From Candidatus Electrothrix sp. GW3-4 (GTDB lineage: Bacteria > Desulfobacterota > Desulfobulbia > Desulfobulbales > Desulfobulbaceae): 32,000 nucleotides of DNA. The stretch is taken from assembly GCF_037902255.1 (NCBI RefSeq), contig NZ_CP147990.1, positions 4,410,001 through 4,442,000 on the forward strand, in the 5' to 3' direction. A program made the position numbers and the translations under genes. The notes below the pieces were generated by a model. That model worked only from the letters and a program-made list of their open reading frames with translations, was not told the DNA's origin and did not search any database. Shown here piece by piece: positions 7,595 to 30,030 of the stretch. The first letter of the stretch is position 1; every line of letters starts with the position of its first letter.

Positions 7595-8914
7595 TTAGGT
7601 CGTTGAGACAAGCTTGTCTCCTGCTATATCCTCCTGAAAGACCTCGGTCCCCTTCTTCATCGCGCAGAAATCACCGCACATGGTGCAGGTGTCGCTTTTT
7701 TCCGGCATTCTCTGCTGGCGTACTTCCTTGGCAATCTCTGGAAAGAGCAGGTGTTGTTCCAGATCATGCCAGCGCATGTCCCGCCGGGCCATTGCGGCCG
7801 CCTTTTCGTTCTCCCGCCGTTCAGGATACTTGGCGATATCGCCAACCCGGACCGCCAGCCGGGTAGCCCGGACCCCTTCCCGGACATCGTTTTCATCGGG
7901 CAGGGCCAGATGTTCGGCCGGAGTGATGTAGCAGACCAGGTCGGCGCCGTGCCGGGAGGAGTTGGCCGCACCAATGGCTGCGGTGATATGATCGTAGCCA
8001 GCGCCGCTGTCCAAGGGCAGGGGGCCGAGCACATAATAGGGCGCATTGCCACTCATTCGTTTTTCCAGCATGATATTGCCTGCAATCTCATCCAGGGGGA
8101 CATGGCCTGGCCCCTCCACCATCATCTGGCAGCCCATCTCCCGGCCTAACTCGGCCAGCTCACAGTTGATGATCATCTCTGCCATCTGGGCCCGGTCATG
8201 GCTGTCATGGATAGCCCCGGCCCGGATCCCGTTGCCCAGGGAGAGGATGGCATCGTATTTTTTCATCAGGCCACAGACCCGATCAAATTGCTCGTACAGG
8301 GGGTTCTCTTTACCGTTGATGTCCATCCAGGCCACCATAAAGGTCCCGCCTTTAGACACCAGTCCACCGTAGCGATAGCCCTGTTTGCGCAGGCGCTCAA
8401 TCGTGTATTGATTGATCCCACAGTGAATAGCCATAAAGCTGATACCATCGGCCAGTTGTTGCTCGATCAGGTCAAAGAGGTATTCTGGATCCAGTTTACC
8501 GGGATTGGCGTATTGGGCCGTGGTCTCCTTAAAGGCCTGATAGAGGGGAACGGTGCCCACAGGGAGGTTGGTGGCCGCCAGCACTGCCTGGCGGATGGCC
8601 GCAAAATCACCAGCAGCCGACAGTTCCATCAGGGTATCGGCCCCTTCCTGTTCCGCGATTCGCGCCTTGCGCACCTCCATATTGATATCACAGATATCGG
8701 AAGAGGTACCGATAGAGGCATTGACCTTGGTACGTAAGCCGGTACCGATACCGACGACCTTTTGCTGTGGACGTAAGGGGTGGTTGGCAATAACGATCTC
8801 GCCCTTGGCTACCCGGCTCCTGATGAGCTCCGGGGCAAGGCCCTCCTTTTGGGCAACGGTGTTGATCTGCTCTGTGATTTTTCCGGCGCGGGCCAGTTCT
8901 AATTGGGTCTGCAT
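7595..8914 (-). CDS. thiC: ThiC-family radical-SAM enzyme. By homology it is phosphomethylpyrimidine synthase, but the cobalamin-riboswitch leader suggests a BzaF-type 5-hydroxybenzimidazole synthase.
   Basis: ThiC-like along its full length: GTVPLYQA, FMAIHCG, MVEGPGHVPL, GYDHITAAIGAA, and the C-terminal CxxCxxxxC cluster motif CTMCGDFCAM. Start placed at the second ATG (8914, MQTQLELA) because GAGGA lies 5 nt upstream of it. The ORF-track start is 8926. Confidence 0.9.
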   Translation of the reverse strand: MQTQLELARAGKITEQINTVAQKEGLAPELIRSRVAKGEIVIANHPLRPQQKVVGIGTGLRTKVNASIGTSSDICDINMEVRKARIAEQEGADTLMELSAAGDFAAIRQAVLAATNLPVGTVPLYQAFKETTAQYANPGKLDPEYLFDLIEQQLADGISFMAIHCGINQYTIERLRKQGYRYGGLVSKGGTFMVAWMDINGKENPLYEQFDRVCGLMKKYDAILSLGNGIRAGAIHDSHDRAQMAEMIINCELAELGREMGCQMMVEGPGHVPLDEIAGNIMLEKRMSGNAPYYVLGPLPLDSGAGYDHITAAIGAANSSRHGADLVCYITPAEHLALPDENDVREGVRATRLAVRVGDIAKYPERRENEKAAAMARRDMRWHDLEQHLLFPEIAKEVRQQRMPEKSDTCTMCGDFCAMKKGTEVFQEDIAGDKLVSTT

Positions 8915-8948
8915 TGCTTTCCTCATTATCTATGCGCCCTGCCGGAAG

Positions 8949-8993
8949 AAAAAAAGGGCACCGGCAGAGCAATTGCTCTTCCGGAACCCTTTG
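8949..8993 (-). terminator. Intrinsic terminator forming the expression platform of the riboswitch upstream of the ThiC-family gene
   Basis: Minus strand AAGGGTTCCGGAAGAGC-AATT-GCTCTGCCGGTGCCCTT forms an extended stem with one mismatch, followed by T7. It lies 22 nt upstream of the first in-frame ATG (8926). Confidence 0.7.
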
Positions 8994-9019
8994 CCATCGC
9001 GTTCCATATTTCTTAAATA

Positions 9020-9170
9020 TTCAGTTCGTCTTCTGGCTTCCCCTCTCCTGCAGCGGCCTTCCCGTTTCTAAGAGGAAACAGTGACCATAACTGTGCAGGA
9101 CATATAACAGGGGTTACAGCATTGGGTATGCCACGGATTCGCACCGTGTTCCGTTCACTGAACATCATCT
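9020..9170 (-). promoter_or_regulatory. Cobalamin (B12) riboswitch aptamer
   Basis: The minus strand contains, in the correct order, the conserved cobalamin-riboswitch blocks ACGGAAC, GGTGCGAATCC, GCTGTAACCCC, GTCACTG, GGGAAGGCC and the B12-box-like AGCCAGAAGAC. No TPP-riboswitch blocks (CTGAGA, ACCTGATCTGGATAATGCCAGC) are present. Confidence 0.8.
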
Positions 9171-9204
9171 GTTTTTTCTGGCGTGCGTATCGCAGCGCCG
9201 GGGT

Positions 9205-9233
9205 ATTATAAACAGCTTTTTGAGTCGTGGCAA
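9205..9233 (-). promoter_or_regulatory. Sigma70-type promoter of the riboswitch/ThiC-family unit
   Basis: Minus strand TTGCCA-17 nt-TATAAT (-35 at 9233-9228, -10 at 9210-9205). Confidence 0.55.
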
Positions 9234-9253
9234 GGAGGGAGGGGGGAAAGAAG

Positions 9254-9306
9254 AACCGGGAACACAGCAGCCTCATGTATTCGGGCAAGAAACTTGGTTC
9301 CCGGTT
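9254..9306 (-). terminator. Possible terminator hairpin after the OMP gene
   Basis: Minus strand AACCGGGAAC...GTTCCCGGTT (10-bp stem, 33-nt loop) followed by CTTCTTTCC. The large loop and weak T-run make it uncertain. Confidence 0.3.
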
Positions 9307-9330
9307 GGGACATAGCAAATATGCATGGGG

Positions 9331-9984
9331 TTAGAAGGCGTAGGAAACCAGAGCAAGGAGGCCGAGCTGACTGGTCTCTTTAAAGCGTACCGCTGTCTCC
9401 CCTTCTGGCAGAGGCTGGTTTTCTTCGATGCCATCCCCCAAGACTTTCGCTGAAGGATCTACGACGATGCCGAGTCCTATATTGAAGCTGTTTGTACTTC
9501 CTGTGCTTCTCCTGAACCCAAGCATGATTCCTGCACCGATATATTCAACGAATTCATTGGAACCATTTTGTATAGCTACGAAGGGGCCAAACCCCAATTC
9601 TCCCTGTTTGTGGTCAAGGTAATCGGCAATTGTTTTGCCAAATATTTTTTCGGGTGGTGGGGTAAAAAAGTAATGCGTCTCAAGCATAATTCTTGGAACG
9701 TCATTTTCCTCCTTGGTCACTCTGACGATACCGTTGACGACGTCCGCGCTTTCAACTCGATTATTATCGCCGAGATCCATGGTTAAACCGAGTGCAACGC
9801 CAAATTTAAAGCCTCCTAATAATTCCGTGTTGGCACCCGTTGATTCTTCACTTCCTGTGGCTCCATTACCTACCTCTGTTCCTGCGTCATTCGTTTGGTC
9901 TTCCGCAAAGACCTGTGGAGCGACAGCGAGGAAAAATAATACTGCACAGAGAAAGATGGTTGTTTTTGGGGTATAAGTATCCAT
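9331..9984 (-). CDS. Small outer-membrane beta-barrel protein (predicted)
   Basis: Signal peptide ending VFA-ED, alternating hydrophobic beta-strand pattern and a C-terminal aromatic OMP signature (LVSYAF). AGGAGG lies 6 nt upstream of the ATG. Confidence 0.6.
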   Translation of the reverse strand: MDTYTPKTTIFLCAVLFFLAVAPQVFAEDQTNDAGTEVGNGATGSEESTGANTELLGGFKFGVALGLTMDLGDNNRVESADVVNGIVRVTKEENDVPRIMLETHYFFTPPPEKIFGKTIADYLDHKQGELGFGPFVAIQNGSNEFVEYIGAGIMLGFRRSTGSTNSFNIGLGIVVDPSAKVLGDGIEENQPLPEGETAVRFKETSQLGLLALVSYAF

Positions 9985-10019
9985 TGGATTCCTCCTTTTT
10001 TTCTTGGATTGTATTTTGA

Positions 10020-11498
10020 TTAATCACCTTGAGCGGGAAGATGTGCTCCTTTCCATACTTCGGGGAGCCAGAAGGGAAGTTCGTCAAAGTCTCCGTGCTC
10101 CTCGGCGGTGCAATAGAGCGTCTTTTTAGGGAATTTTTCTAGTCCTTTAATTTTAAGACTCTTTAATTCTTCCTTAGTGCATTCTTTACGACCTTGAATG
10201 CCAAATATTGTGAAATGCATATTGCGTTTTATATGGTCAGGATCATTAGGTATAAGATCAATTGCTCTCGCCATGTTATCCCATCTTCCTGAACGCTTAC
10301 TCATAACGGTCTCCGGGACGGTATACTGATTATCAATCCAGGTGAGTAAACTACCGCTTGGGGTTAACCCCGAAGCGCTGGCTTCTCGATCTTCATTCTT
10401 AGGATGGAGAGCCAAACTGTAAAATTGGACCTCCTTATTTTTAGAAAGATATGGAATGACTAAGTTAAACAAATTCTCAATGGAATCTGCGGCCCCCATG
10501 TGAACTATATTTTTATATGGGAGGTTAAATCCTTGATTGATAATCTTGTTAACGACAATGGCTCCCATGCTATGCCCTATTATCTCAACACCTAATGTTG
10601 GGCTATATTGATTGCTCTGTATCTTTTCTTCTAGCTTGGCAAGAAATTGATATAATGCTCCACTCCCGGGTGCTCCATATTTCGGAGCGTACTGTACGGC
10701 GTTGGCTTTCAATTCCAAATCAGATGGGGTATAAAAAAGGGTATTCGTTCTCCTCAGCATAATATCCCAGGCAGGCTTGCCCAAGGTATAAGCGAAAGGA
10801 GTCGTGACTACTTTGCTGGGACTTGTTATAATCCATTTTAATTTCCTTCTTACATTCCAATAATCGGCATTGTCTTTTGTACAACGAATGTTTAATCTGT
10901 TTCCGTTATTACAATAACTTAACGAGTCGTATTCTTGAAGAAACGTTGAATTGAGCATGTGTCCCCCTGATACCAGCCATGCCTTTGGGGCGGTGATAAG
11001 TGTATTTCCAATATCGGTTAGGAGGTAGAAGGGGGCTGTCAACTTTGCCCACGGTGAAATGTCGCCCTGCCGAATCCTTATTAGATGTGATCCATAGGAT
11101 CGAATTCCCTCTGAATTCCAATTGATGAAAACCGGATACTTTCCGCTGGCTTTGATTAACGGATAGGTTTCTAAAGCTCTTTTGAGAGCACCAGCTTCAT
11201 GAGCTAACCCTCCGTGTATAAAGAGGACTAGCTTGGCATTCTTGCCATTACTCTTTTTCTCTTCAATATAGGCTCTGATTCTATTTACTATATTGTTTAA
11301 ATAAGCTTCTTGCCCCCCTTGGGCTATCTTGTCTCCAGTTAGAGGTGCTCTCAATTCCCCGTCTTTCCCTATTGTTATTACATGATCTTGTATTTCAGTC
11401 TCATACTGATCTGTTATCTTTGTATCTAGAGGCAGTCCTGTACACCCCGAAAGAAAAAATAGAGCAATCGAGCCGAGCAAATAATGTTTTTTTAGCAT
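10020..11498 (-). CDS. Lipoprotein, alpha/beta-fold serine hydrolase (esterase/lipase-like)
   Basis: Lipobox LFFLSGC, an HGG-type segment (LVLFIHGGLAHE) and the nucleophile elbow GHSMG. Start moved to ATG 11498 (MLKKHYLL), which has AAGGAGG 7 nt upstream. The ORF-track start is 11558. AT-rich gene. Confidence 0.7.
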   Translation of the reverse strand: MLKKHYLLGSIALFFLSGCTGLPLDTKITDQYETEIQDHVITIGKDGELRAPLTGDKIAQGGQEAYLNNIVNRIRAYIEEKKSNGKNAKLVLFIHGGLAHEAGALKRALETYPLIKASGKYPVFINWNSEGIRSYGSHLIRIRQGDISPWAKLTAPFYLLTDIGNTLITAPKAWLVSGGHMLNSTFLQEYDSLSYCNNGNRLNIRCTKDNADYWNVRRKLKWIITSPSKVVTTPFAYTLGKPAWDIMLRRTNTLFYTPSDLELKANAVQYAPKYGAPGSGALYQFLAKLEEKIQSNQYSPTLGVEIIGHSMGAIVVNKIINQGFNLPYKNIVHMGAADSIENLFNLVIPYLSKNKEVQFYSLALHPKNEDREASASGLTPSGSLLTWIDNQYTVPETVMSKRSGRWDNMARAIDLIPNDPDHIKRNMHFTIFGIQGRKECTKEELKSLKIKGLEKFPKKTLYCTAEEHGDFDELPFWLPEVWKGAHLPAQGD

Positions 11499-11695
11499 AT
11501 CAGACCTCCTTTTTTGTTTGATATGGTTTATCACTAAGTATAAAATATTATATATCACCGTGCGGTGGTCGCTGTCAAAGGAATAATGCTAAGTTGTTGA
11601 TAGTGGGTGACCCTGGTTGTTGCGTACGGGCTTGTTCTGAAATGCTTTATGGAGAAAGTGCAAAGGAAGCTGTCTTTACATCAAAGATCAATTCT

Positions 11696-11724
11696 TGACA
11701 AGAAAGAGGGAGGAAGGTAAATTC
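11696..11724 (+). promoter_or_regulatory. Sigma70-type promoter of the orphan cobalamin riboswitch
   Basis: TTGACA (11696-11701), 17 nt spacer, TAAATT (11719-11724). A 5' hairpin GAGCATC-N6-GATGCTC follows immediately. Confidence 0.55.
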
Positions 11725-11744
11725 TGAGCATCTTTTCAGATGCT

Positions 11745-11890
11745 CCTAACCGAGCTTAATAGGGAACCCGGTGTGAATCCGGGACGGGCCCGCCGCTGTA
11801 ACCGGGGACGAAGGCTGCATAACGCCACTGCAGAGATGCGGGAAGGCGCAGCCGGGAGGATGATCCGGGAGTCAGAAGACCTGTCTGGAA
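11745..11890 (+). promoter_or_regulatory. Cobalamin (B12) riboswitch aptamer
   Basis: Near-consensus blocks: AATAGGGAACCCGGTGTGAATCCGGGACGGGCCCGCCGCTGTAACC, GCCACTG, GGGAAGGCG and the B12 box AGTCAGAAGACCTG. Confidence 0.9.
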
Positions 11891-12036
11891 AAAGAGCAAC
11901 CTGGCGCATCGGAGGATATGTGCGCCCAGGTGAACCGTCCTTTTTTTCTTTTTATTGCTCCAGGGGTATTTTTCTGTGGTAGAAAGAAGGGCGGTGGAAA
12001 AAGAGTTTATTCGTGGAAAAACAGGGCATCCTCGAA

Positions 12037-12074
12037 TCTGTTAATCAGGTTCGGGGATTTTTTTTGCCTGCATC
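12037..12074 (+). terminator. Rho-independent terminator about 150 nt downstream of the orphan riboswitch
   Basis: ATCCTCGAA-N13-TTCGGGGAT (9-bp stem with one G-U pair) followed directly by T8. Confidence 0.75.
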
Positions 12075-12109
12075 TCCGGGCCCTTTACACCATGCAAGGA
12101 GGATTTGCT

Positions 12110-12271
12110 ATGACTGCAAACGAACAGGCTTATTGTAAAATTACCTTTTTTTTACTTACGGATTGGGATTCCTTCCAGATGGTCATGCGGGGAGGTCTAC
12201 GCCGGATGGAGAGAAAAGAAACCGTTCAGGGGGCAACCGATCGTGCAACTGATCGACCAGAAAGGAAGTAA
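12110..12271 (+). CDS. Candidate 53-aa small protein (very uncertain)
   Basis: ATG preceded by AAGGAGGA with a 6-nt spacer. Translation MTANEQAYCKITFFLLTDWDSFQMVMRGGLRRMERKETVQGATDRATDRPERK has no recognisable family. It lies after a strong terminator and no promoter is evident. Confidence 0.25.
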   Translation: MTANEQAYCKITFFLLTDWDSFQMVMRGGLRRMERKETVQGATDRATDRPERK

Positions 12272-12295
12272 TCGCTTAGATTGGAGATGTTGAGC

Positions 12296-12347
12296 CCAGG
12301 AGATATTTTTCAGCCAGCTGCTTTCGTTGCTGAAAGATATCTCCTGG
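12296..12347. other. 19-bp-arm inverted repeat (long hairpin) between the convergent units
   Basis: CCAGGAGATATTTTTCAGC-N14-GCTGAAAGATATCTCCTGG. The single non-Watson-Crick position is a G-U pair on the plus-strand RNA and an A-C mismatch on the minus-strand RNA. No flanking T-run on either strand. It sits 44 nt beyond the dapL stop. Confidence 0.7.
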
Positions 12348-12391
12348 TTCCTGCAAAGATCCTGCAAAGAAGATGGGGAGGTGGTATGGGC

Positions 12392-13615
12392 TTAGGCCAG
12401 GGCCTTTTGGATCCTCTCCATCGCTGTAATTACATTCTCACGGGAATTGAAGGCAGAAAGACGAATATATCCCTGCCCGCATTTCCCAAAGCCTTCACCC
12501 GGAGTGCAAACTACTCCGGCCTCGTTCAGCAGCATATCAAAGAAGTCCCAGGAATCACGCTGGCCCTGGATCCAGACATAGGGAGAGTTGGCTGCTCCAG
12601 CATATGCAAAGCCCAGTTCCCCGATTGCCTTGGCGATCAGGTCTGCGTTTTCAAGATAGGAGTTGACCAGTTCGTTAATCTGGGCCTGTCCCTCATCAGA
12701 GTATACCGCCTCAGCAGCTCGCTGGACAGGATAGGAAACCCCGTTGAACTTGGTGCAGTGGCGTCGATTCCAGAGAGGGTGGATCGCCTGCGTATTGCCT
12801 GCACTGTCAAAGGCCCGACACTCCTTGGGAACAACGGTGTAGGCGCAACGGGTCCCGGTAAAACCGGCATTCTTGGAAAAGGAGCGGAACTCAATGGCCA
12901 CTTCTTTTGCACCCTCAATCTCAAAGATGGAGCGGGGCAGAGAGTCATCCCGGATAAAGGCCTCATAGGCCGCATCAAAGAGGATCAGGGCCTTGTTCTC
13001 CTTGGCATAATCCACCCATTTTTTCAGTTCTTCCTTGCTGGCTGTGGAGCCGGTGGGGTTATTGGGGAAACAGAGGTAGATCAGGTCAACCGGTTCTGTA
13101 GGGAGATCTGGGACGTAGTTATTCTCATGGGTTGAGTCAAGGTAGACCATGCCCTGATAGCGGCCGTCGCTGAAAGTGCCTGTGCGGCCAGCCATAACAT
13201 TGGTGTCCAGATAGACCGGGTAGACCGGGTCCGGGATGGCGATCCGGGCATCTCTACTGAAGAGTTCCTGAATATTTCCGGTATCGCATTTTGCCCCATC
13301 AGAGATAAAGACCTCATCCGGGCTGATATCAGCGCCTCTGGCCTGGAAATCATGTTTCGCGATGGCCTCGCGCAGGAAGGCGTAGCCCTGTTCAGGGCCG
13401 TAGCCGCGAAAGCTGCTGTCTTCTGCCATTTCATCAACCGCCCGGTGGAAGGCCGCAATACAGGCCTTGGGCAGTCCATGGGTGACATCACCGATTCCTA
13501 AGCGGATGATATCTTTATTCGGGTTGGCTTCCTGAAAGGCCGTTACTCGTTTCGCAATATCGGAAAAGAGGTACGAGGCCTGGAGTTTCAGATAATGTTC
13601 ATTTATTTTCAGCAT
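12392..13615 (-). CDS. dapL: LL-diaminopimelate aminotransferase
   Basis: N-terminus [20 protein letters not shown] and PLP-lysine motif [17 protein letters not shown] are typical of DapL. Start set to ATG 13615, which has GAAGG upstream. The ORF-track start at 13651 has no RBS. Confidence 0.9.
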
Positions 13616-13704
13616 ATCTTTTGCCTTCTTGTATGGATTTTCTGTTAACATATATAATATGTAAGGAAAATATAAACGTCTTTCCTTGGCGGAGCTTTTT
13701 AGCG

Positions 13705-16434: not shown

Positions 16435-17571
16435 TTACGCGTTCCAGCATCCACGAACAATCCTGACAATTTGTTCCAGGTCCTTATCGTTCATACTTGT
16501 GCCGGAGGGCAGGCAAAGGCCAGTGTGGAAAATTTCTTCGGCAACCTGTCCGCCAGCAACTTCGCATCCCTTGTACAGGGGCTGGAGGTGCATGGGCTTC
16601 CAGGTGGGGCGTGATTCAATATTGTGTTTTTCCAGCTCCTGAATGACGGTGTCTCGGTTGGTACCTGCCTGGGCAGGGGCAATGGTTAGGCAGGTAAGCC
16701 AGCGGCTGGAGCGGGCAAAGTCTGGTTCCGGCATAAAACGGACTCCGGGTAGATCGCCCAACTGTTCACGATAATAGGCAAAGATTTCTCGCTTTCTCTG
16801 TACACGCTCATCCAACACCCGGAGCTGGCCCCGGCCTATGGCGGCCAGTACATTGCTCATCCGGTAGTTATAGCCCATTTCAGTATGTTGATAATGGGCA
16901 GCATTATCTCTGGCCTGGGTGGCCCAGAATTTCACCTTGTGGATCAATGCTTCATCGTTGGAAACAATCATGCCGCCGCCGGAGGTGGTGATGATCTTAT
17001 TGCCGTTAAAGGAATAAAAACCGGCCAGGCCGAAGGTGCCTGGAGTCTTGCCTTTATACTGCGCCCCGAGGGCCTCGGCGGCATCTTCAATCAGAATGAC
17101 GCCATGTTTGTCACAGGCGGCTTTGATGGGGGCAATATCAGCGGGCTGGCCATAGAGATGGACCAGCACCACCGACTTGGGCAGACAGCCTTGGGCTGCA
17201 CGCTGTTCCAGCTCCGAGGCCAGCAGGACCGGGTCCATGTTCCAGCTGGAAAAATCAGAATCAATAAAGACAGGTGTGGCTCCCTGATAGAGGATGGGAT
17301 TGGTAGAGCCGACAAAGGTGAAGGTGGAGCAGAACACGACATCCGCCGGTCCGACCCCGACATAGCGCAACAGCAGGTGCAGGGCAGCCGTCCCGGAGGC
17401 AACGGCGGCAGCGTACTTTGCTCCAACGGTGTTGGCAAATTCCTGCTCAAAGGCGTCGAGTTGAGGACCGACCGGGGCGATGTAGTTGGCGGCAAATGCT
17501 TGGTGGACAAAATCCAACTCTTGGCCGCCCATATGGGGGGGGGATAAAAATATTCGTTTATTGGGACTCAT
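16435..17571 (-). CDS. DegT/DnrJ/EryC1/StrS-family sugar aminotransferase (PglE/EpsN-like)
   Basis: Family-typical N-terminus (FLSPPHMGGQELDFV) and PLP-lysine segment FNGNKIITTSGGGM. Its start overlaps the upstream stop as TAATG. Confidence 0.9.
   Translation of the reverse strand: MSPNKRIFLSPPHMGGQELDFVHQAFAANYIAPVGPQLDAFEQEFANTVGAKYAAAVASGTAALHLLLRYVGVGPADVVFCSTFTFVGSTNPILYQGATPVFIDSDFSSWNMDPVLLASELEQRAAQGCLPKSVVLVHLYGQPADIAPIKAACDKHGVILIEDAAEALGAQYKGKTPGTFGLAGFYSFNGNKIITTSGGGMIVSNDEALIHKVKFWATQARDNAAHYQHTEMGYNYRMSNVLAAIGRGQLRVLDERVQRKREIFAYYREQLGDLPGVRFMPEPDFARSSRWLTCLTIAPAQAGTNRDTVIQELEKHNIESRPTWKPMHLQPLYKGCEVAGGQVAEEIFHTGLCLPSGTSMNDKDLEQIVRIVRGCWNA
17535..17543. repeat. G9 (coding-strand C9) homopolymer in codons 10-13 of the aminotransferase gene
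   Basis: Counted directly: TCC CCC CCC CAT encodes S-P-P-H. Confidence 0.9.
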
Positions 17572-17978
17572 TATGGCCTCATCTCTCGAATAACCTTAGC
17601 TGGTACGCCAACGGCAATAGTATTAGCTGGAATGTCAGAAGTAACGAAGCTATGGGCGCCTACAATAGCATTTTTACCTATTGTTACTCCTGGCATTACT
17701 GTTGAATGAGAGCCCAGTTTACAATTTTCTTCTAAAACAACCTTGCCTTGTTTATCGTCAATTGTAGAAACAGAATATATTGAACAATGTGACCCTATTT
17801 GCACGTGCTTCTCTATCACGACTCCAAAAAGGGCATTAATATATGTAAATGCACCAATATCAGTACGATATCCTAGCGTTAAGCCAGGTGCGTTCTGGAC
17901 CAGCCAATTAAATTTTGTTGGAACGCCATCTTCAATATCTGGATACTTCCAATTTTGAAATCGTTCGCTATCTGACAT
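17571..17978 (-). CDS. Hexapeptide-repeat (left-handed beta-helix) sugar N/O-acetyltransferase, short form (PglD/EpsM-like)
   Basis: Hexapeptide pattern IGSHCSIYSV...LGSHSTVMPGVTIGKNAIVGAHSFV...IAVGVPAKVI. It sits between the PglC-like and aminotransferase genes. Confidence 0.8.
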   Translation of the reverse strand: MSDSERFQNWKYPDIEDGVPTKFNWLVQNAPGLTLGYRTDIGAFTYINALFGVVIEKHVQIGSHCSIYSVSTIDDKQGKVVLEENCKLGSHSTVMPGVTIGKNAIVGAHSFVTSDIPANTIAVGVPAKVIREMRP

Positions 17979-18597
17979 GATTGTGTAGTTCAGTTTCTTG
18001 GTTGAGGTGGCTACCTTGAAATTTACTCATTGTTTCCTGTCCCTCTTGGCTAATTCCCTCGCGTCTGAAAACTTTCAGGAAGGTTATCCAGAGTATTTTG
18101 ACATCCAGCCATAACGAATGATTATCTACATACCAAACATCCCGGTCAAATTTTTCTTCCCAAGAGAGGCCATTTCTCCCGTTTACCTGGGCCCATCCGG
18201 TAATGCCGGGCAGGACATCATGTCGTCTCGCCTGCTCCGGCGTGTAGCGGTCAAGGTATTCCATAAGCAAAGGCCGAGCGCCTACTAAACTCATATCGCC
18301 TTTGAGGACATTAATCAGTTCGGGCAGTTCATCCAGACTGGTACTACGCAGGAAGCGGCCAAAGGGGACAAGCCTTTTGCCATCGGGAAGTAATTTGCCA
18401 GCAGTATCTCTTTCGTCAGTCATAGTCCGAAATTTATACATCCGAAATGGTTTGCCGTGCAGACCGGGACGTTCCTGGATAAAGAGAATAGGTTTACCTA
18501 TCCTGGCTCTTACCAATAGAGCAGTCAACAGTATCAGCGGAGAAAGACAAAGGATACCGGGAAGAGTGAGGAACAGGTCAAAAAAACGTTTGGTCAT
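17968..18597 (-). CDS. Small monotopic phosphoglycosyl transferase (bacterial sugar transferase family, PglC/EpsL-like), initiating enzyme
   Basis: N-terminal re-entrant helix FFDLFLTLPGILCLSPLILLTALLV, plus KFRTM and DELPELINVLKGDMSLVGARP motifs. Start set to ATG 18597 (MTKRFFD), 2 nt after the upstream stop. Confidence 0.9.
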   Translation of the reverse strand: MTKRFFDLFLTLPGILCLSPLILLTALLVRARIGKPILFIQERPGLHGKPFRMYKFRTMTDERDTAGKLLPDGKRLVPFGRFLRSTSLDELPELINVLKGDMSLVGARPLLMEYLDRYTPEQARRHDVLPGITGWAQVNGRNGLSWEEKFDRDVWYVDNHSLWLDVKILWITFLKVFRREGISQEGQETMSKFQGSHLNQETELHNHVR

Positions 18598-18599
18598 AA

Positions 18600-19967
18600 T
18601 TACCTTTTCTCCACATTCTGCAAAACAATCCACTGCCCTGAACGCGCACTCCCCTCACGCCTCAATACTCCTTTTGCCTTCAATCGTCCGAAATACTCCT
18701 TGATCGTATCAGAACGCATGGACAGCAGATCAGCAAGTTCCCTGCTGCTGGCTTTGGGGTTTTTCTGTAGCAGCTCTAAAATTTTCTGTTCAAGTTCGGT
18801 GATCGGGGGGTGATCGGGGGGTGATCGGGGGGTGATCGGGGGGGCATCTTCCGTCAATTCAAAACTGACCAGTAACCCTGAACCGACTTCTTCAATGCGA
18901 AAACGGAGGTCAGGATATTCAGCCAGTTCTTTCCGAATACGGACAAAACCGCTTCCGTATTTTTCAATATTCTTTGTTAAATAAAATGCCTCGGCTATCA
19001 GCTTGTTGCGCAGGTGCGACGAGTAACTGTCCGTCTCCAGCTCGGCAAGAGTTAAATCACCGTAGAGTTTCCCCGGACTGAAAAAAGTAATGCTGTTATC
19101 AAAGACCTTGATCTGAATATCAGAAGGGTTGGTATAATCCCGATGGACAACAGTATTGAGCAACACCTCACGCAAGGCTGCCAGAGGATAGGAAAACCGT
19201 TCTTTCCGCTGCAAACTCCCGTCAAATGCAAACGCCACGCGGATATTGGCAATGATATACTTCATGGCCTGTTCCACAGCCTTGAACAGGGTGTCGGTAA
19301 TCTGTCGGTCGTCAATAATTATGCTTGATGTTTTGAAACGTCCGATATGAATATGATGCCGCAACGGTTCATCGGCAAACAAGAGCATGGCCGCCCAAGT
19401 CGGCTTTCCTTGGGAAATAAGTTTGAGTTTCTCTAAAGCCAGCAGAGGGGAGGGGTCCAACATGAAACGACCACTCTGGTTTACTTGGGCGATAAACTTT
19501 TCAATCTTGTCCGGAGACAAGGCATCCAGTGATGCTCCCGGAGCTTCATGGGCATCCCAGGAAATCTGTAATGACTGAAGATAGAGGTCTGTGATCTCGC
19601 TTAACGAGAGCTGATGATTTGAGGTGGCGATTCGCTTAAAATAGCGTCCCTTTGTGTTGACCGGTTTTACCGGATACTCATTAATATGAATTCTGACAAT
19701 CGGTTGATCATGCAGGGTAACGAGTTCTATATCCGGAATAATTGAAGGACTTGTAGCGGACTTAATCTGACCGAGCCACTCGTTGAGTGTTTCTTTGCCC
19801 ACAGATACACCGCAGGGAGTGCCGTCATCCGCTACGCCGATCAACACTGTCCCGCCTTGAGCGTTGGCAAAGGCTACCAGTGTTTCTATGGTCTCACGAC
19901 CAAAGGATTTTTTGAATTCGATGGTCTGGGATTCTCCGGTTTTTAAGAGATTTTCAATGTTCACCAA
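18600..19967 (-). CDS. AlbA_2 (Schlafen-like divergent AAA) + HATPase_c_4-like + C-terminal winged-HTH protein; putative regulator
   Basis: N-terminal ESQTIEFKKSF...VAFANAQGGTVLIGVADDG (AlbA_2 signature). Middle ALREVLLNTVVHRDY (RecG-C-terminal/HATPase_c_4-like). C-terminal ELEQKILELLQKNPKASSRELADLL (wHTH). TTG start at 19967, with GTG as the next codon. Confidence 0.8.
   Translation of the reverse strand: MVNIENLLKTGESQTIEFKKSFGRETIETLVAFANAQGGTVLIGVADDGTPCGVSVGKETLNEWLGQIKSATSPSIIPDIELVTLHDQPIVRIHINEYPVKPVNTKGRYFKRIATSNHQLSLSEITDLYLQSLQISWDAHEAPGASLDALSPDKIEKFIAQVNQSGRFMLDPSPLLALEKLKLISQGKPTWAAMLLFADEPLRHHIHIGRFKTSSIIIDDRQITDTLFKAVEQAMKYIIANIRVAFAFDGSLQRKERFSYPLAALREVLLNTVVHRDYTNPSDIQIKVFDNSITFFSPGKLYGDLTLAELETDSYSSHLRNKLIAEAFYLTKNIEKYGSGFVRIRKELAEYPDLRFRIEEVGSGLLVSFELTEDAPPITPRSPPDHPPITELEQKILELLQKNPKASSRELADLLSMRSDTIKEYFGRLKAKGVLRREGSARSGQWIVLQNVEKR
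18800..18844. repeat. 4 x 11-bp perfect tandem repeat TGATCGGGGGG (coding strand CCCCCCGATCA) inside the AlbA_2/wHTH gene
   Basis: Counted directly; the last unit has G7. It is translated in all three phases as PPITPRSPPDHPPIT. Each unit contains GATC. Confidence 0.95.
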
Positions 19968-19987
19968 CTAAGTTCCCTTGCGTATTT

Positions 19988-21151
19988 TTATATATTTTTA
20001 ATTTTTTTATAAAAAGTCGGGTTGGTGTTGGATTGTTCAAGCCCCATAATTGCCATTAGCTCCTTATTGATTTTTTGTACATCAAATTTTTCTTCTGCTA
20101 TTTCTCTGCTTCGTTTTCCCATACGCTTCCATTCTTCGGGATGCTCAATAAACCAAGTCATACGTTCTGCGAGGGCCTCGGCATTTCTTACAGGAACTAA
20201 GAAACCATTTTCGCCCTGAATGACGGTTTCCCGACATCCCGGTGTATCTGTCGTTAAAACAGGCCGACCTGTGGCCATTGCTTCCAAAACACTTCGAGGC
20301 ATCCCTTCATGATACGAAGGTAACACATAAGCATGGCAGGAGGTAAGAAAGGGGCGAACATCGTCGGTTACCCCCAAGTATTGTATTATTCCTTTATCGT
20401 GCCAAGCCTGAATTTTTGTTATAGACACTCCATCTGGCGAAGGATCTTCTGGGCCGAGTACATTAAAGACGGCATCTGGGTATCGCTCCTTTACTTTTCG
20501 GGCTGCACGGGTATATTCCCTGATTCCTTTTTCCTGAAGAAGACGAGCGATGAGTAAAAAAATGGGTTTACCCGCCTTCATTTGTGCCACCTGAAAATGT
20601 TTAATATCTACACCAGAGCCGTCAACGACAGCGCATTTATCCGCAGAAACGATATGTTTCTTAACGAATTTTTCTTGGTTATCATAATTTTGAAAAATAA
20701 CTCGGGTTGCCTTTCGTAAAGAGAGGTTGTATAGCCATGAAGCTATTTTGCGAAGTAGCCTTCGCTGGGTATTTTTTCCTTCAAAAACATATCCAAGTCC
20801 TGTAATTAACGCATAGAATGGAACATTTTTGTTTAGGCAGGATATAGCAAAACCTCCGAAGATAACAGGTTTGATTGTATAGGCAAAAACAATATCGGGC
20901 TTTTCCTGACAAAATATTTTGTACAGGGAGATAAATGTCTTAAAGTCATTCCAAGGATTCAGGCCATTACGTTGTATAGGAAATGCACGGAAATCAGCAC
21001 CAAGAGATTGCAGTTGTATGATAGTTTCTTGGGAAGCAGGAGCTGCCATTGCTGTGACTTGGTGGCCTGATTGTACGAGGGTACTTATAAAATCTCCTCG
21101 AAAATTAACCAATGATGGAGGGTATGCCCCTATAATTAAAATTTTTTTCAT
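19988..21151 (-). CDS. Glycosyltransferase, GT-B fold (GT4-like)
   Basis: MKKILIIGAYPP N-terminus and the EX7E-type region HEGMPRSVLEAMATGRPVLTTD. ATG 21151 preferred over the TTG at 21166. Confidence 0.85.
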   Translation of the reverse strand: MKKILIIGAYPPSLVNFRGDFISTLVQSGHQVTAMAAPASQETIIQLQSLGADFRAFPIQRNGLNPWNDFKTFISLYKIFCQEKPDIVFAYTIKPVIFGGFAISCLNKNVPFYALITGLGYVFEGKNTQRRLLRKIASWLYNLSLRKATRVIFQNYDNQEKFVKKHIVSADKCAVVDGSGVDIKHFQVAQMKAGKPIFLLIARLLQEKGIREYTRAARKVKERYPDAVFNVLGPEDPSPDGVSITKIQAWHDKGIIQYLGVTDDVRPFLTSCHAYVLPSYHEGMPRSVLEAMATGRPVLTTDTPGCRETVIQGENGFLVPVRNAEALAERMTWFIEHPEEWKRMGKRSREIAEEKFDVQKINKELMAIMGLEQSNTNPTFYKKIKNI

Positions 21152-21189
21152 AAATTTGTAAGTCAATTAAGGCCGCTGTCACTTGCTCT

Positions 21190-22278
21190 TCAACGTACAA
21201 CATCCTGTATAGCTATTGCAATATCATCAGCATATAATAATGGGTTCCTCCAGGAGGAAAGGGCGTTTTTTTGTAATTCACAATAGTTCTCAGTGTCTTT
21301 CAAGAGAGAAAGTATTCTCTGAGTAGCAGTGTCAATATCTTTAATTATCAGAGAATTTTTTGAGTCCTGGCAATAATTTTTTATTTCCCCTACAGGTGCG
21401 ACTATAGGTACCAGTCCTAGCTGCATAGCTTCAATAACTGACAGAGCCATACCTTCTTTTCGACTTAACTGTAAGTAGAATGAATAGTTATGGGAACTGT
21501 TTTTAATTTCTTTAAACTCTTGAAGTCCCAGAAAGTGAACACTGTTTGAAATTCCAAGTTTCCGAACAAGTTTTTTTAAGTTTGCTTCTTCTCCGTCATC
21601 AGAGCCATATATAAAGAAAGAGGCTGTAGGAATTGTCTGATGAATATTGGCAAAGACTTGAAGTGCCCGGTCAATACCTTTCCAATAATTTAGCCTCCCC
21701 CAATATACGAAAAATGGATTATTTTTCGGTAGGCTATGAGGAGGAATTATACGGCTCAGGATAAACGAGATAACCCGCAACGGTTTTCGGGAGGTTAGTC
21801 GGGAAGGCACACGGATAGTAATTGTTGTTTTGGAGTCAGCCCAGATTGCATCAGCAACGGCCATTCCACAATGGTTTATTAATTTATCAATAAGATTTGT
21901 TGTTCCGGCGGAATGTAAAAAACAGACAAGTTTGACCTTGGGACACAGCAGCTTGTATAAAATACCTGCGAATAAGGTTCGCCACAGCGAGCATATGAGG
22001 ACATCGGGTTTCTGCCGGATCAATGTTAATAAAGCCCAAAAATGTGCTATGGGATTATTAAGATGGGTACGAAGGCGAGCGAGTGAACGTACTATGGTAA
22101 ACGCAAAAATTTTGTTTTTATCCTGATCACTCTTCTCTTTAAAAGATGCCCATCCTACAAGGCACATTAAACGAAGATCAACCTCTTTCGCTGAAGCTCC
22201 TTTCATGATACATGAACGTGCTGCTGTCTCTACTCCTCCGACACCATCAAATGGGATGAAATGAATACATTTGATCAT
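21190..22278 (-). CDS. Glycosyltransferase, GT-B fold (GT4-like)
   Basis: The C-terminal half has RKEGMALSVIEAMQLGLVPIVAPVGE. AT-rich. Confidence 0.75.
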   Translation of the reverse strand: MIKCIHFIPFDGVGGVETAARSCIMKGASAKEVDLRLMCLVGWASFKEKSDQDKNKIFAFTIVRSLARLRTHLNNPIAHFWALLTLIRQKPDVLICSLWRTLFAGILYKLLCPKVKLVCFLHSAGTTNLIDKLINHCGMAVADAIWADSKTTITIRVPSRLTSRKPLRVISFILSRIIPPHSLPKNNPFFVYWGRLNYWKGIDRALQVFANIHQTIPTASFFIYGSDDGEEANLKKLVRKLGISNSVHFLGLQEFKEIKNSSHNYSFYLQLSRKEGMALSVIEAMQLGLVPIVAPVGEIKNYCQDSKNSLIIKDIDTATQRILSLLKDTENYCELQKNALSSWRNPLLYADDIAIAIQDVVR

Positions 22279-22300
22279 AAGAACGCTTAGAATAAAAAGG

Positions 22301-23431
22301 TTATGCTACTTGCCGATAAATATGAGTAATCTGTTCAGCACACGCATTCCAAGAAAACTGCTTTGCTCTTAGCCTGCCATATCTTCTTAGCTGGTCAGCT
22401 AATTTTTTATTTGTACACACTTCGTGAATCGCCTCAGCAATTGCAGAAACATCATATGGGTCTACAAGCAAGGCCGCATCTCCGGCGATTTCAGGAAGCG
22501 ATGAAATATTTGATGTCACCACTGGACAGCCTGAAGCCATAGCTTCAAGTAGGGGGAGGCCAAATCCTTCGTAGAGAGATGGGTGAATGTAGAGACTAGC
22601 CATACTATACAACGTATGGAGTTGTTCATCTGAGACATAGCCAAGTAAATGAATACGCTTTCTTAGTTTTTCAGACCCTTCTATTTGATTACTAATTTCT
22701 TTCATATCCCAGCCATCTCCACCAACAAGAAGTAAATGGTGTGGAATAACGTCAATCAATTGTGAAAATGCCTGAATGACACGGGCACCATTTTTGCGCG
22801 GGCTGATTTTTCCTGCCGTAAGGATATAGGGTATATCCGGCTGAGGCATTTCTGTAAGTGAATTGATGCTAGTCAACTCAGGTGCTTCAAGAAAAAGAGG
22901 TGCAATACCCTCATGAACGACATGAATACGTTCTGAAATCTGAGTATCGACATACGATTCCAATTCATCGGCACTGCTTTGGGATACACAGATAAAGGCA
23001 TCCGCTTTGCGAATAGCCTGCTGTAAGCAGCGTTTCATAACCCAAGGATTAGTATTGGAAAAAAATTCTGGATGTGTCAGAGGACCAAGATCATGGATTG
23101 TTACGACATACGGTTTATTTGTCGAAATTGGATACCCGAGGGATACGGCATGGACTACGTCAATTGCCTCAGGCATCCAGCGTTCAAGAGGTGGCCAGTT
23201 GAGAAATGTCCAGCTCACTGATGTACCTACTCGTCCCCATGGCATCAAACGGAGACCGGTCTGACGGATTAATTCTTTTTTCTTATCGTCTGAGTGGTTG
23301 CTCCAAGCGGCAACCGGTGTGATAGAAATATCAGGGTAGGTGTTTAATTCTTTAAAAAGCTGACGCGCATATCGGGCTATGCCATGCCCTTGATTAGTAG
23401 CAAACTGATTAGAAAAGTAGGCGACATTCAT
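22301..23431 (-). CDS. Glycosyltransferase family 4
   Basis: LYEGFGLPLLEAMASGCPVVTSNISSLPEIAGDAALLVDP. Confidence 0.85.
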   Translation of the reverse strand: MNVAYFSNQFATNQGHGIARYARQLFKELNTYPDISITPVAAWSNHSDDKKKELIRQTGLRLMPWGRVGTSVSWTFLNWPPLERWMPEAIDVVHAVSLGYPISTNKPYVVTIHDLGPLTHPEFFSNTNPWVMKRCLQQAIRKADAFICVSQSSADELESYVDTQISERIHVVHEGIAPLFLEAPELTSINSLTEMPQPDIPYILTAGKISPRKNGARVIQAFSQLIDVIPHHLLLVGGDGWDMKEISNQIEGSEKLRKRIHLLGYVSDEQLHTLYSMASLYIHPSLYEGFGLPLLEAMASGCPVVTSNISSLPEIAGDAALLVDPYDVSAIAEAIHEVCTNKKLADQLRRYGRLRAKQFSWNACAEQITHIYRQVA

Positions 23432-23447
23432 AATTTTTTCAAAGCAG

Positions 23448-24440
23448 TTAGTGAGCTTTTATTGAGAAACATGTCTTTCCGAAGATACGATTCCAGACAA
23501 CATGCATGTTTTGCCGGAAGTTTTTTGGGAGAAACATTCCTGCCAATGCTGCGTAAGAATCAAATGCGAATGGCCAGATAACAAGAGAAAGAAAATACAT
23601 TCTGAGTGCTAATTGCTTTGAGATTCCACGATGAAAATAGACCCGTCCACGTCTGCGATACATTGCAGCACGAGCGGCTTGAGAAACTGAAGGTGGAAAT
23701 TTTGCTCGAAGATAAGCGTATTTTTCAAAGATTATCTGATGAGCTGTTATTTCTCTTTGTGGGTTTGAGCGTACCCGTTCTCCTGTATGCTCTCCTTGTT
23801 CAACTAAAATTTCTGGAATAGAGCCTATATGAAAATGTGTAGCCAGACGGATCCACATATCCCAATCCTGCCTGGCCGGGAGTGTGATATCAAACAGCCC
23901 AGTCTTCTTAAAACATTCTTTCCTGACAACCCAGCAAGAAGTTGGCTCCGTGACATCTTGAATTAAAAGTTGTCGCAATAAGTACCCTTCGGGATAGTTT
24001 TTGGGCACAACCTTTGCTCTTTTTTGGGTATTGATATCAAAATGTCGTAATCCACAGTATATGCCTCCAATTGAATGATTCGACCTCAATGCAAGGATTT
24101 GTTTTTCCAATTTTTTGGGCATCCAAAGATCATCGCTATCTAAAAAGGCGATAAATTCCCCTGTTGCCTCTTCAATTCCCCTGTTGCGTGCTGCGTTAGC
24201 TCCTTGATTTTTTTGTTTAATGCACTTTATGGAAAATTCCCCTGTAATATTATATAGCTCTGACCATTTCTGGACAACCTTAACTGTGTCATCTGTAGAT
24301 CCATCATCCACAACGATAATTTCTAATGGACGGAACAACTGGTGACGAATACTTTCCAGAGAAGATAAAATTAATTTTGAACGATTGAATACAGGAACGA
24401 CTACTGTAACCAAAGATTCTTTATTATATTGGTCAGGCAT
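23448..24440 (-). CDS. Glycosyltransferase family 2
   Basis: VTVVVPVFNRS...EIIVVDDGSTDDT and a DSDD motif (FLDSDDLW). Confidence 0.9.
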   Translation of the reverse strand: MPDQYNKESLVTVVVPVFNRSKLILSSLESIRHQLFRPLEIIVVDDGSTDDTVKVVQKWSELYNITGEFSIKCIKQKNQGANAARNRGIEEATGEFIAFLDSDDLWMPKKLEKQILALRSNHSIGGIYCGLRHFDINTQKRAKVVPKNYPEGYLLRQLLIQDVTEPTSCWVVRKECFKKTGLFDITLPARQDWDMWIRLATHFHIGSIPEILVEQGEHTGERVRSNPQREITAHQIIFEKYAYLRAKFPPSVSQAARAAMYRRRGRVYFHRGISKQLALRMYFLSLVIWPFAFDSYAALAGMFLPKNFRQNMHVVWNRIFGKTCFSIKAH

Positions 24441-25320
24441 TTTTTATCTTATTTATATCCTTTATTTTTTCGTGGTATTCTTGCCAGGTTTGTGAAAACA
24501 TTGCTTCTATCTCCTGACGTGATATGTGATGTTGTTGGTCCCAAGCCAATGCATAACTTCGGAAGGTAGCATCTGCTGCATGTAACGCCCATATCAGTCC
24601 AGGAATTCCATCTTGGTAACCGTGCTTGAAGATGAATTGTTTAGCAAATTCGATAAACGGTCGTATGAAAAAAGAGTACCAGTGTATTTTGCATGTTTTT
24701 TTGCTAATTTTATTTGAAAGCTCTGTACAGTAAAGTAGGCTTTTACTCATACGTTTTTCATAACCATCCTCATTAAGATGCCACATTTGTGCGTTGAGCT
24801 GCCCAATGCGCTCTGGAGGTACTTGAACAATGCATTCTTCATGATACATTCCACCAAATTTAAATATATCCCGTCTTGACAAATGGATAAGGTTCCAATC
24901 TTGTAAGCCGCCTCCCCGCATTGGTCGGTGCAGGAAAAAATTCAATCTTCGAAATTTGTAAGCATCTTTTTGTGGTTCTATGATTGCTGCTTTAATTTCG
25001 CAGGCTAGTTCCGGTGTGACTCTTTCATCAATATCCATGTGAAGAAGCCAATCGCTGGTAGAGGCTGCAATCCCTTTATTTCGCTGATCACTAAAATACT
25101 CACCTTCACTGCGTGGAGAAGCAAGAAAGTTAACCTTTGGGCCTCCCTTCATCGCAATTTCAGCTGTCCGGTCGGAAGATCCATCGTCAACAATGACAAT
25201 TTCATTTACCCATGGAAGAAGATGCTCTATAAAAACGGGAAGATTCTGTTCCTCATTATAACTGATAGCTACAACGCCCAGCGTTGGAGAGGTATCGCAT
25301 CTTGTGGAATTCTGCGGCAT
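24433..25320 (-). CDS. Glycosyltransferase family 2
   Basis: LGVVAISYNEEQNL...EIVIVDDGSSDRT and HMDIDE (DxD-like). Overlaps the next gene by 8 nt. Confidence 0.85.
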   Translation of the reverse strand: MPQNSTRCDTSPTLGVVAISYNEEQNLPVFIEHLLPWVNEIVIVDDGSSDRTAEIAMKGGPKVNFLASPRSEGEYFSDQRNKGIAASTSDWLLHMDIDERVTPELACEIKAAIIEPQKDAYKFRRLNFFLHRPMRGGGLQDWNLIHLSRRDIFKFGGMYHEECIVQVPPERIGQLNAQMWHLNEDGYEKRMSKSLLYCTELSNKISKKTCKIHWYSFFIRPFIEFAKQFIFKHGYQDGIPGLIWALHAADATFRSYALAWDQQHHISRQEIEAMFSQTWQEYHEKIKDINKIKNA

Positions 25321-25324
25321 GCTC

Positions 25325-29850: not shown

Positions 29851-29907
29851 ATCCAGAGTTTATTGTTTTTCTTTTTGAGCTTTGGGCAAATACTGTTTGA
29901 AAAAGCA

Positions 29908-30030
29908 TTACCCCAAAAAAATTGCCACTGAGCCGATATAGGCATTATCGCCGACCACAGTCCCCGTAGCAATATTGACACGAAAATGAATCTTGGCGGA
30001 GTCATCCCAGACAAATCTTTTCTTAATCAA
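29908..30030 (-). pseudogene. Possible remnant of a hexapeptide-repeat acetyltransferase
   Basis: The 41-codon frame (40 aa plus stop) reads LIKKRFVWDDSAKIHFRVNIATGTVVGDNAYIGSVAIFLG*. It shows about 4 consecutive [LIV]-x-x-G-like hexads and then stops prematurely. It lies in the only long (203-bp) gap of the operon. Confidence 0.3.

Follow-up and report, generated by a model that had tools for sequence, protein, structure and literature searches.

What does a riboswitch control when none of the genes usually governed by its ligand lies behind it? The question is raised by a cobalamin (vitamin B12) riboswitch on the plus strand of a 32,000-nucleotide (nt) stretch of DNA from Candidatus Electrothrix sp. 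GW3-4 (contig NZ_CP147990.1, positions 4,410,001 to 4,442,000), here called the window, to which all coordinates refer unless another locus is named. A riboswitch is usually taken to regulate an enzyme or transporter gene lying behind it, and a preliminary description of this locus, which had seen no such gene, took the element for the head of a noncoding RNA without cargo. In fact, no conventional B12 gene (btuB, cob/cbi, metE or nrd) follows, and six TonB-dependent receptors, compared with the whole window by tblastn, returned noise only, with no relic of a receptor. What does stand behind the riboswitch is a single open reading frame (ORF) of 53 codons, which had been set aside as doubtful. 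The absence of a cargo could not be upheld, since a conserved ORF follows the riboswitch in every copy, with a ratio of nonsynonymous to synonymous substitution (dN/dS) of 0.12-0.2. The unit is probably a small but complete gene under B12 regulation, encoding a conserved mini-protein, and not a cargo-less riboswitch. This reading is supported by computation through the homology of the aptamer, the coding signature of the ORF, the linkage of riboswitch and ORF, the covariation of a terminator and the presence of a strand competing with it.

The aptamer was located by cmscan at 11721-11902 (+), somewhat beyond the 11745-11890 first proposed, with an untruncated match to RF00174 (model positions 1-189) scoring 119.3 bits (E 1.3e-29) against a gathering threshold of 31.5. 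The GCCACTG and GGGAAGG blocks and the B12 box, AGTCAGAAGACCTG, are all present in this alignment and invariant in relatives, and cobamide binding and control of the downstream gene are assigned to 11721-11902 as putative functions by homology to this family. Orthologous aptamers reach 114-125 bits in 12 Electrothrix loci, being as strong as, or stronger than, the copies linked to transporter genes, and the aptamer is 86-96% identical to those of relatives, compared with 53-71% at the four-fold degenerate sites of dapL, the convergent gene for LL-diaminopimelate aminotransferase. A sigma-70-like promoter, TTGACA-17-TAAATT, is found ahead of the aptamer at 11695-11723 (+), as had been reported, with 10/12 consensus matches and a predicted start at about 11730. 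In four Electrothrix genomes its -35 hexamer is invariant and its -10 hexamer is TAAATT or TAGAAT, the promoter region being 61-89% identical across relatives. Since a promoter scan found promoter-like sites to be no commoner in the region than in shuffled sequences, it is this conservation that argues for the site. A perfect inverted repeat of 8 bp, GAGCATCT-TTTC-AGATGCTC (11726-11745, +), falls at the predicted start of the transcript and competes with the 5' strands of the aptamer stems P1 and P2; it is invariant in the same number of Electrothrix genomes, four, and not obvious in other lineages, and it may serve as an alternative 5' hairpin or as a protein operator.

The small ORF occupies 12110-12271 (+) and its product, MTANEQAYCKITFFLLTDWDSFQMVMRGGLRRMERKETVQGATDRATDRPERK, consists of a conserved core of 31 residues and a variable basic tail. 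The same sequence is annotated in Ca. Electrothrix sp. GW3-4 as the hypothetical protein WGN25_19715 (100% identity). The ATG at 12110, 208 nt past the aptamer, is preceded at 6 nt by the Shine-Dalgarno sequence AAGGAGGA, and both the Shine-Dalgarno sequence and the ATG are conserved in every copy. In 14 distinct Electrothrix sequences, variable sites within the first 31 codons number 9, 5 and 18 at codon positions 1, 2 and 3, respectively, with a dN/dS of 0.12, and the conservation extends over at least 14 loci. The core is 78-94% identical across Electrothrix, again compared with 53-71% at the four-fold degenerate sites of dapL, while the C-terminal tail varies and contains indels that keep the reading frame. 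When the relatives were aligned, as the preliminary description had proposed in order to tell RNA covariation from a codon-like pattern, the terminator helix was seen to covary and the substitutions in the ORF to be codon-like. Moreover, the riboswitch-ORF unit was found in three Electrothrix loci adjoining dapL and in nine further loci retrieved through the ORF product, the aptamer lying on the same strand, about 180-225 nt 5' of the ORF, in the window and in 12 further Electrothrix loci. The unit also holds together in Ca. Electrothrix communis, where dapL is not downstream, so that the ORF travels with the riboswitch even without dapL. By computation, then, the unit continues into a conserved protein gene, an outcome that had been named beforehand as one that would speak against a noncoding RNA.

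Between aptamer and ORF, in every copy, lies an intrinsic terminator. In the window it extends over 12028-12065 (+), with a 13-bp stem (12028-12058) and a T8 run (12058-12065); the strong terminator noted earlier is thus real, although its limits (12037-12074) were slightly off. Over 56 family members, 96.7% of the cells of this helix are paired and 8/13 pairs show compensatory double changes, values reached by 0/500 shuffles, and the pairing collapses if the partners are slid. Electrothrix sequences share 88-96% identity in the 80-nt block around the terminator. Just upstream, the strand GTTTATTCGTGGAA (12005-12018, +) repeats the terminator 3' arm in degenerate form and, being able to pair with the 5' arm, is a candidate antiterminator. 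The duplex amounts to -8.8 kcal/mol in the window according to RNAduplex, with a family mean of -9.2 kcal/mol against -4.9 for shuffled strands; in a fixed register 82.6% of the cells pair, as against 22-54% when slid, and the competitor strands fit their own terminator arm better than those of other lineages (permutation fraction 0.001). Their covariation is modest, yet above that of all 500 shuffles. Because the terminator always stands between aptamer and ORF, and because the competitor strand is conserved, it looks like a riboswitch expression platform, laid out as an attenuator with an antiterminator, and not like the end of a gene-less unit. It is followed by a nearly invariant spacer, GCCTGCATCTCCGGGCC..., at 12066-12109 (+), which holds the Shine-Dalgarno sequence at 12096-12103 and whose segment 12078-12109 is 69-97% identical to relatives. 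A hairpin that would sequester this Shine-Dalgarno sequence falls short of significance in the window (z -0.12) and looks plausible in other lineages.

The leader between aptamer and terminator contains two further hairpins. The first, bulged and in the position of P13, lies at 11899-11931 (+), within one nt at either end of the 11900-11930 originally given, and has GGAGGATATG in its loop and 3' arm. Electrothrix has an extended form of this hairpin, whose loop carries CGGAGG with an ATG or GTG after it, and over 12 loci the loop CATCGGAGG hardly varies; outside Electrothrix a shorter hairpin with a CCGYGGA loop occupies the same place, with no comparable start site. A Shine-Dalgarno-like motif (CGGAGG, with the variants GGTGA and GAAGG) and an ATG or GTG are found at the position of 11910-11922 in 12/12 Electrothrix leaders, separated by only 2-5 nt. 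The frame opened there runs for 8-47 codons in 11 relatives, its length, frame and stop position all being variable, and in three leaders it stops inside the terminator loop. In this window, the ATG frame starting at 11918 runs by chance into the small ORF, resulting in an ORF of 117 codons, which was rejected as being peculiar to this genome, the homologous frames closing after 8-47 codons in relatives. The second hairpin, specific to Electrothrix and variable, extends over 11934-11995 (+), where a T-rich arm pairs with AGAAAGAAGGGCGG. This arm includes the T7CT5 run (11941-11953) which had been described after the first stem; the run is present, but a role as terminator tail was discarded, since in the predicted fold it forms a hairpin arm within a poorly conserved stretch. 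The variable hairpin is indeed the least conserved segment of the leader (17-77% identity) and is missing from most non-Electrothrix relatives, where the spacing from aptamer to ORF is mostly 115-160 nt, compared with about 208 nt. A permissive search for Rfam families on both strands of 11880-12420 yielded sub-threshold noise only. RNAalifold detected zero compensatory pairs in 12 Electrothrix leaders because these are too similar, and a long-range pairing that it proposed between the B12 box and the Shine-Dalgarno/start region of the ORF was rejected, all of its support coming from invariant bases.

Beyond Electrothrix, the peptide belongs to a family whose alignments the window peptide heads, and profiles built from these alignments retrieve the family with E values as low as 1e-35. 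When 1.84 billion representative proteins were searched with a profile, 33 relatives (representatives at 50% identity) were obtained, almost all of 30-90 amino acids (aa), and a second search gave 216 clusters at 90% identity, named "hypothetical protein" or not at all, with the organism labels Desulfurivibrio, Desulfobulbaceae, Desulfobulbales, Desulfobacterales and Thermodesulfobacteriota. The family members have 27-57 aa and share the core motif E-Q-x-x-(C)-K-x-T-L-(F/L)-L-x-x-D-W-D-x-F-Q-x-x-M-R. For 73 distinct nucleotide sequences, dN/dS is about 0.2 over a 23-codon core, and the ORF frame is open in 100% of them, compared with 15-73% for the other five frames. The AlphaFold model of the peptide shows two helices, with a mean predicted local distance difference test (pLDDT) score of 73. 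No description of this peptide or locus was found in the literature, and the DWDxFQ peptides are put forward as a previously unannotated family of mini-proteins with a predicted two-helix fold.

The genomic context of the family was surveyed in the 80 loci returned by a metagenome scan with it. Among the loci having at least 300 nt upstream, 71/76 have a B12 box on the ORF strand no more than 700 nt upstream, the chance expectation being about 0.01 per locus; a full RF00174 match, ending 115-210 nt ahead of the ORF, was obtained in 18/20 sampled loci, and nearly all metagenome loci have a hairpin with a T-run 45-70 nt ahead of the ORF start. The next gene encodes a TonB-dependent receptor (Plug and beta-barrel domains) in 45/80 loci, the best NCBIfam models being a heme receptor and a B12 receptor, both below their cutoffs. 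In 27/35 distinct junctions the receptor start overlaps or abuts the ORF stop, with a gap of -4 or -1 nt, and a Shine-Dalgarno-like motif for the receptor usually falls inside the ORF tail. In a Desulfurivibrio metagenome-assembled genome (MAG; locus L171), the ORF is followed by genes with Plug/barrel receptor, TonB_C, Peripla_BP_2, FecCD and ABC_tran domains, which would make up a full btuB-tonB-btuFCD-like operon headed by the mini-protein gene. Some other loci have CbiK or a GFO/IDH/MocA oxidoreductase downstream. B12-related genes behind the module are thus seen in relatives, and only the 53-aa ORF in the window; no same-strand gene comes after that ORF, so that no stop/start overlap occurs there. 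From these sequence comparisons, the mini-protein gene appears as the first cistron behind B12 riboswitches in Desulfobulbales and their relatives, most often at the start of a BtuB-like receptor gene.

About 15 of the loci are stand-alone units like those of Electrothrix and face unrelated convergent genes, namely FeoB in six loci and SerB-like, DAO, Ppx/GppA, PGK, ferredoxin and DsbA elsewhere. A particular case is that of a Desulfobulbaceae MAG (L172), in which the stand-alone ORF (8001-8147, +) overlaps by 27 nt the 3' end of a Gate-domain gene (8121-9419, -), and in which a CbiK gene lies 1.4 kb further on, on the same strand as the small ORF. The nearest relatives of the window peptide (the MATREQSFCK... 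group, which includes Desulfurivibrio) carry a transporter operon behind the module, and the transporter-linked form is the commonest across the subfamilies. On these two grounds, the Electrothrix arrangement is most simply explained by a loss of the transporter genes, with the sensor, the attenuator and the peptide gene being retained. Furthermore, since the peptide seems to be under purifying selection without a downstream gene, and since independent stand-alone units occur elsewhere, the comparison argues that it may itself take part in the response to low B12, in trans and beyond coupling to the next gene.

If the unit is indeed a small B12-regulated gene, transcription would start at the sigma-70-like promoter near 11730 and run through the intact cobalamin aptamer. 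With cobamide bound, the terminator (12028-12065) would form and transcription would stop about 45 nt short of the ORF start, leaving about 335 nt of RNA. At low B12, the strand at 12005-12018 would pair with the 5' arm of the terminator, and the ORF at 12110-12271 would be reached by read-through and translated from its strong Shine-Dalgarno sequence. This OFF polarity, by which B12 would cause termination ahead of the mini-protein gene, is the most likely one, given the general behaviour of cobalamin riboswitches and the uptake genes regulated in relatives.

Several results weigh against this account. Concerning the switch itself, equilibrium folding forms the terminator with or without a free P1 3' strand, no thermodynamic switch being visible. 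A search for an L5-L13 kissing loop found no consistent complementarity in the window and other lineages, the aptamer L5 being here a GAGA tetraloop or a 3-nt loop. A scan for upstream partners that might sequester the competitor strand gave two recurring candidates, the 5' side of the first hairpin and the GAUGAUCCGG region of the aptamer, neither of which leads to an unambiguous polarity. As for the product, the peptide is without a detectable homologue of known function in Pfam, NCBIfam, the PDB sequences and a Foldseek comparison with the PDB. Finally, the unit seems to be dispensable in some lineages, because Ca. Electrothrix laxa has no aptamer and keeps the terminator and ORF, Ca. Electrothrix marina (L004 7367-7749, -) has lost the first 9-10 codons of the ORF, everything upstream being unrelated sequence, and no unit adjoins dapL in E. 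gigas and Electronema.

The E. laxa locus (L003 7500-7720, -) has a deletion comprising the promoter, aptamer and first hairpin, with its breakpoint inside the variable hairpin, so that the competitor strand, terminator and intact small ORF now come directly behind a 349-aa ORF, presumably ruvB-like judging from its translation. In E. marina an internal ATG, which corresponds to Met11 in some species, could start a 47-aa product, although it is without a Shine-Dalgarno sequence.

Three other explanations have to be weighed against a B12-regulated mini-protein gene. According to the first, which is close to the preliminary description, the locus makes a riboswitch-gated noncoding RNA, the product being either the 335-nt terminated transcript or a read-through transcript antisense to dapL, with the ORF incidental. 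A working attenuator necessarily yields a terminated leader RNA, and RNAs ended by a riboswitch are able to act in trans, as does SreA of Listeria. Besides, the 80-nt terminator block, at 88-96% identity, is more conserved than a simple hairpin needs to be, and E. laxa keeps it without the aptamer. On the other hand, the ORF shows a clear coding signature, together with a Shine-Dalgarno sequence and ATG conserved in every copy. The predicted hairpin loops, of about 10, 4 and 5 nt, are not the paired hexaloops of ANTAR-binding RNAs, and the permissive Rfam search of 11880-12420 was empty. With regard to the antisense form, read-through would reach the 3' end of dapL 120 nt past the ORF, and the overlap proposed earlier is geometrically possible; nevertheless, a 22-bp hairpin separates ORF and dapL, and the arrangement is not conserved, dapL being convergent in most Electrothrix loci but not in E. 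communis, and the other stand-alone units facing seven unrelated kinds of genes. A noncoding product is, in view of all this, considered unlikely.

According to the second, the locus is a decaying remnant, in which a btuB-type uptake operon has been deleted and the aptamer, terminator and leader ORF, no longer functional, are on their way out. Ordinary B12-regulated genes at this spot in relatives had been foreseen as the sign of such a remnant, and they were found: the relatives with the most similar peptide have the module ahead of btuB-tonB-btuFCD-like genes. The aptamer deletion in E. laxa, the 5' truncation of the ORF in E. marina, the absence at dapL in E. gigas and Electronema and the C-terminal tail, variable and with indels, also agree with decay. 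The unit itself, however, does not have the look of one that is decaying, since at least 12 Electrothrix loci retain an intact aptamer, whose 114-125 bits equal or surpass the scores of the transporter-linked copies, and since aptamer, terminator and ORF core are 78-96% identical, compared with 53-71% at neutral sites, with a dN/dS of 0.12 for the ORF. In addition, stand-alone units recur in several other lineages, for example in the six loci at feoB. A unit without function is improbable.

The third, in which the riboswitch would control a short upstream ORF starting at 11910-11922 and ribosome movement along it would decide on terminator formation, is still more doubtful, for although the motif and start codon occur in 12/12 Electrothrix leaders (the variants GGTGA and GAAGG remaining Shine-Dalgarno-like), the upstream ORF ends within the terminator loop in three of them and B12 riboswitches over translated upstream ORFs are known in M. 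tuberculosis (PMC11260477), its frame, stop and length (8-47 codons in relatives) are not conserved, the gap from motif to start is just 2-5 nt, and the members outside Electrothrix have the same terminator and small ORF without any such start site.

The small B12-regulated gene favoured here can be compared with several known systems, the closest described one being the ppe2 B12 riboswitch of M. tuberculosis. This compact translational OFF switch has as its first target a translated upstream ORF with its own Shine-Dalgarno sequence, uPPE2, which overlaps the ppe2 start by AUGA, is required for PPE2 expression and, by the published description, shows only partial conservation (Kipkorir et al., NAR 2024, PMC11260477). 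The likeness resides in a B12 riboswitch followed immediately by a short ORF that has its own ribosome-binding site and, in the relatives, in the overlap or abutment of the small ORF with the receptor gene by 4 or 1 nt at 27/35 junctions, a dependence of the receptor on it being putative. Unlike uPPE2, the ORF described here is separated from the aptamer by an intrinsic terminator, its 31-residue core is conserved across a bacterial order with a dN/dS of about 0.2, and Electrothrix and other lineages have no gene behind it with which it could be coupled.

In the btuB leader of E. coli, B12 uptake is under classical cobalamin riboswitch control. The present unit shares with such operons the aptamer family and the presumed logic of uptake repression when B12 is plentiful and, in the relatives, the genes for a TonB-dependent receptor, TonB and BtuF-, BtuC- and BtuD-like proteins behind the module; it differs in having a conserved mini-protein gene between riboswitch and receptor, and the window has no transporter genes. 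Among the noncoding systems, EutX of Enterococcus and Rli55 and AspocR of Listeria act through decoy hairpins for ANTAR proteins or as antisense to a fixed target. They have in common with this locus a B12 riboswitch, a terminator, the lack of a conventional B12 gene and a convergent gene open to read-through. Contrary to EutX and Rli55, a translated-looking conserved ORF is present here and no tandem hexaloop hairpins are predicted, no dedicated scan for ANTAR sites having been run; contrary to AspocR, the convergent gene differs among lineages, with no fixed target conserved along with the riboswitch. The Mg2+-sensing mgtA leader of Salmonella also combines a ligand-sensing RNA with a short ORF, mgtL, which is cis-acting through the position of the ribosome and whose peptide is not thought to be trans-acting; here, in contrast, the ORF comes after the terminator and persists where no downstream gene is present. 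As a kind, riboswitches with a translated leader ORF are already known, and what appears new is the terminator in between, the order-wide conservation of the peptide and the copies with nothing downstream.

The surroundings of the unit agree in large part with their first description. The convergent dapL was confirmed at 12392-13651 (-) by TIGR03542 (599 bits against a cutoff of 365); its product has 90-93% aa identity to those of Ca. Electrothrix species, which places the window among the cable bacteria, and the ORF of 419 aa in the window, for which an exact look-up gave no match, corresponds to a gene called as 407 aa in public assemblies. The hairpin between the small ORF and dapL is present at 12296-12347, with about 22 bp instead of the 19 bp reported, a z of -2.9 and a T-run on neither strand. 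It is kept in the loci L001-L004 and absent from L005, and it probably forms the 3' end or the terminator of one or both genes, where it may work as a bidirectional terminator lacking a U-tract or as a 3'-end stabiliser.

The second B12 riboswitch mentioned previously was recovered at 9006-9177 (-) with 68 bits for RF00174, 80 nt upstream of a ThiC-family radical-SAM gene. This gene (unit 7595-9177, -) scores 558 bits with the NCBIfam ThiC model, above the cutoff, and 496 bits with the BzaB lower-ligand model, whose cutoff is 700; the pairing of a B12 riboswitch with a ThiC-family gene recurs in the Electrothrix loci L001, L002, L081, L083, L086 and L087. Since a B12 and not a thiamine pyrophosphate (TPP) riboswitch precedes it, a BzaF/BzaA-type 5-hydroxybenzimidazole synthase is suggested. 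Between the two riboswitches, at 9331-11558 (-), two ORFs of 217 and 512 aa without a Pfam or NCBIfam match are divergent from the riboswitch promoter, and genes of similar size without a Pfam match occupy the same position in L081, L086, L087 and L088. Further away, a long cluster at 17571-31837 (-) contains sugar transferase, glycosyltransferase, sulfotransferase and O-antigen-ligase-like genes, and is interrupted at 18600-19967 by a gene with Schlafen/AlbA_2, HATPase_c_4 and winged helix-turn-helix (wHTH) domains.

In other loci, the position of dapL is taken in E. communis (L081 6601-12174) by minus-strand genes of PqqD-like, ScmC-like (a faint match), ABC-transporter and nucleotidyltransferase type, which suggests that a cluster for a ribosomally synthesized and post-translationally modified peptide (RiPP) was inserted beside the riboswitch unit. 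An Electrothrix-like metagenome contig (L084 9339-9448) bears two overlapping matches to the Acido-Lenti-1 RNA (RF01687), one per strand, with 45.8 and 37.7 bits, adjoining a large nonribosomal peptide synthetase (NRPS) gene.

As to what the mini-protein does, it is suggested tentatively, as a possibility well short of the confidence placed in the gene itself, that it is a trans-acting signal of B12 shortage acting on other proteins or RNAs, for instance those of corrinoid uptake, salvage or B12-dependent enzymes. If this were true, the riboswitch would head a small regulatory cascade, a protein counterpart of the riboswitch-gated regulatory RNAs, and cable bacteria and several other lineages would have retained only the sensor and its signal once the adjacent transporter genes had been lost or moved elsewhere. 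In any event, the first target of a B12 riboswitch, across an order of sulfur-cycling bacteria, appears to be an unannotated peptide of some 30 residues, conserved in its amino acids, which in cable bacteria and some other lineages seems to be the sole item controlled. The DWDxFQ peptide is, in this context, a testable candidate for a small-protein player in cobamide homeostasis, and "orphan" riboswitches in general deserve a check for small ORFs before being labelled noncoding. Moreover, the comparison suggests that Ca. Electrothrix has lost a riboswitch-linked B12-uptake operon which Desulfurivibrio has kept, a loss that would bear on the vitamin dependence of these uncultured electrogenic bacteria.

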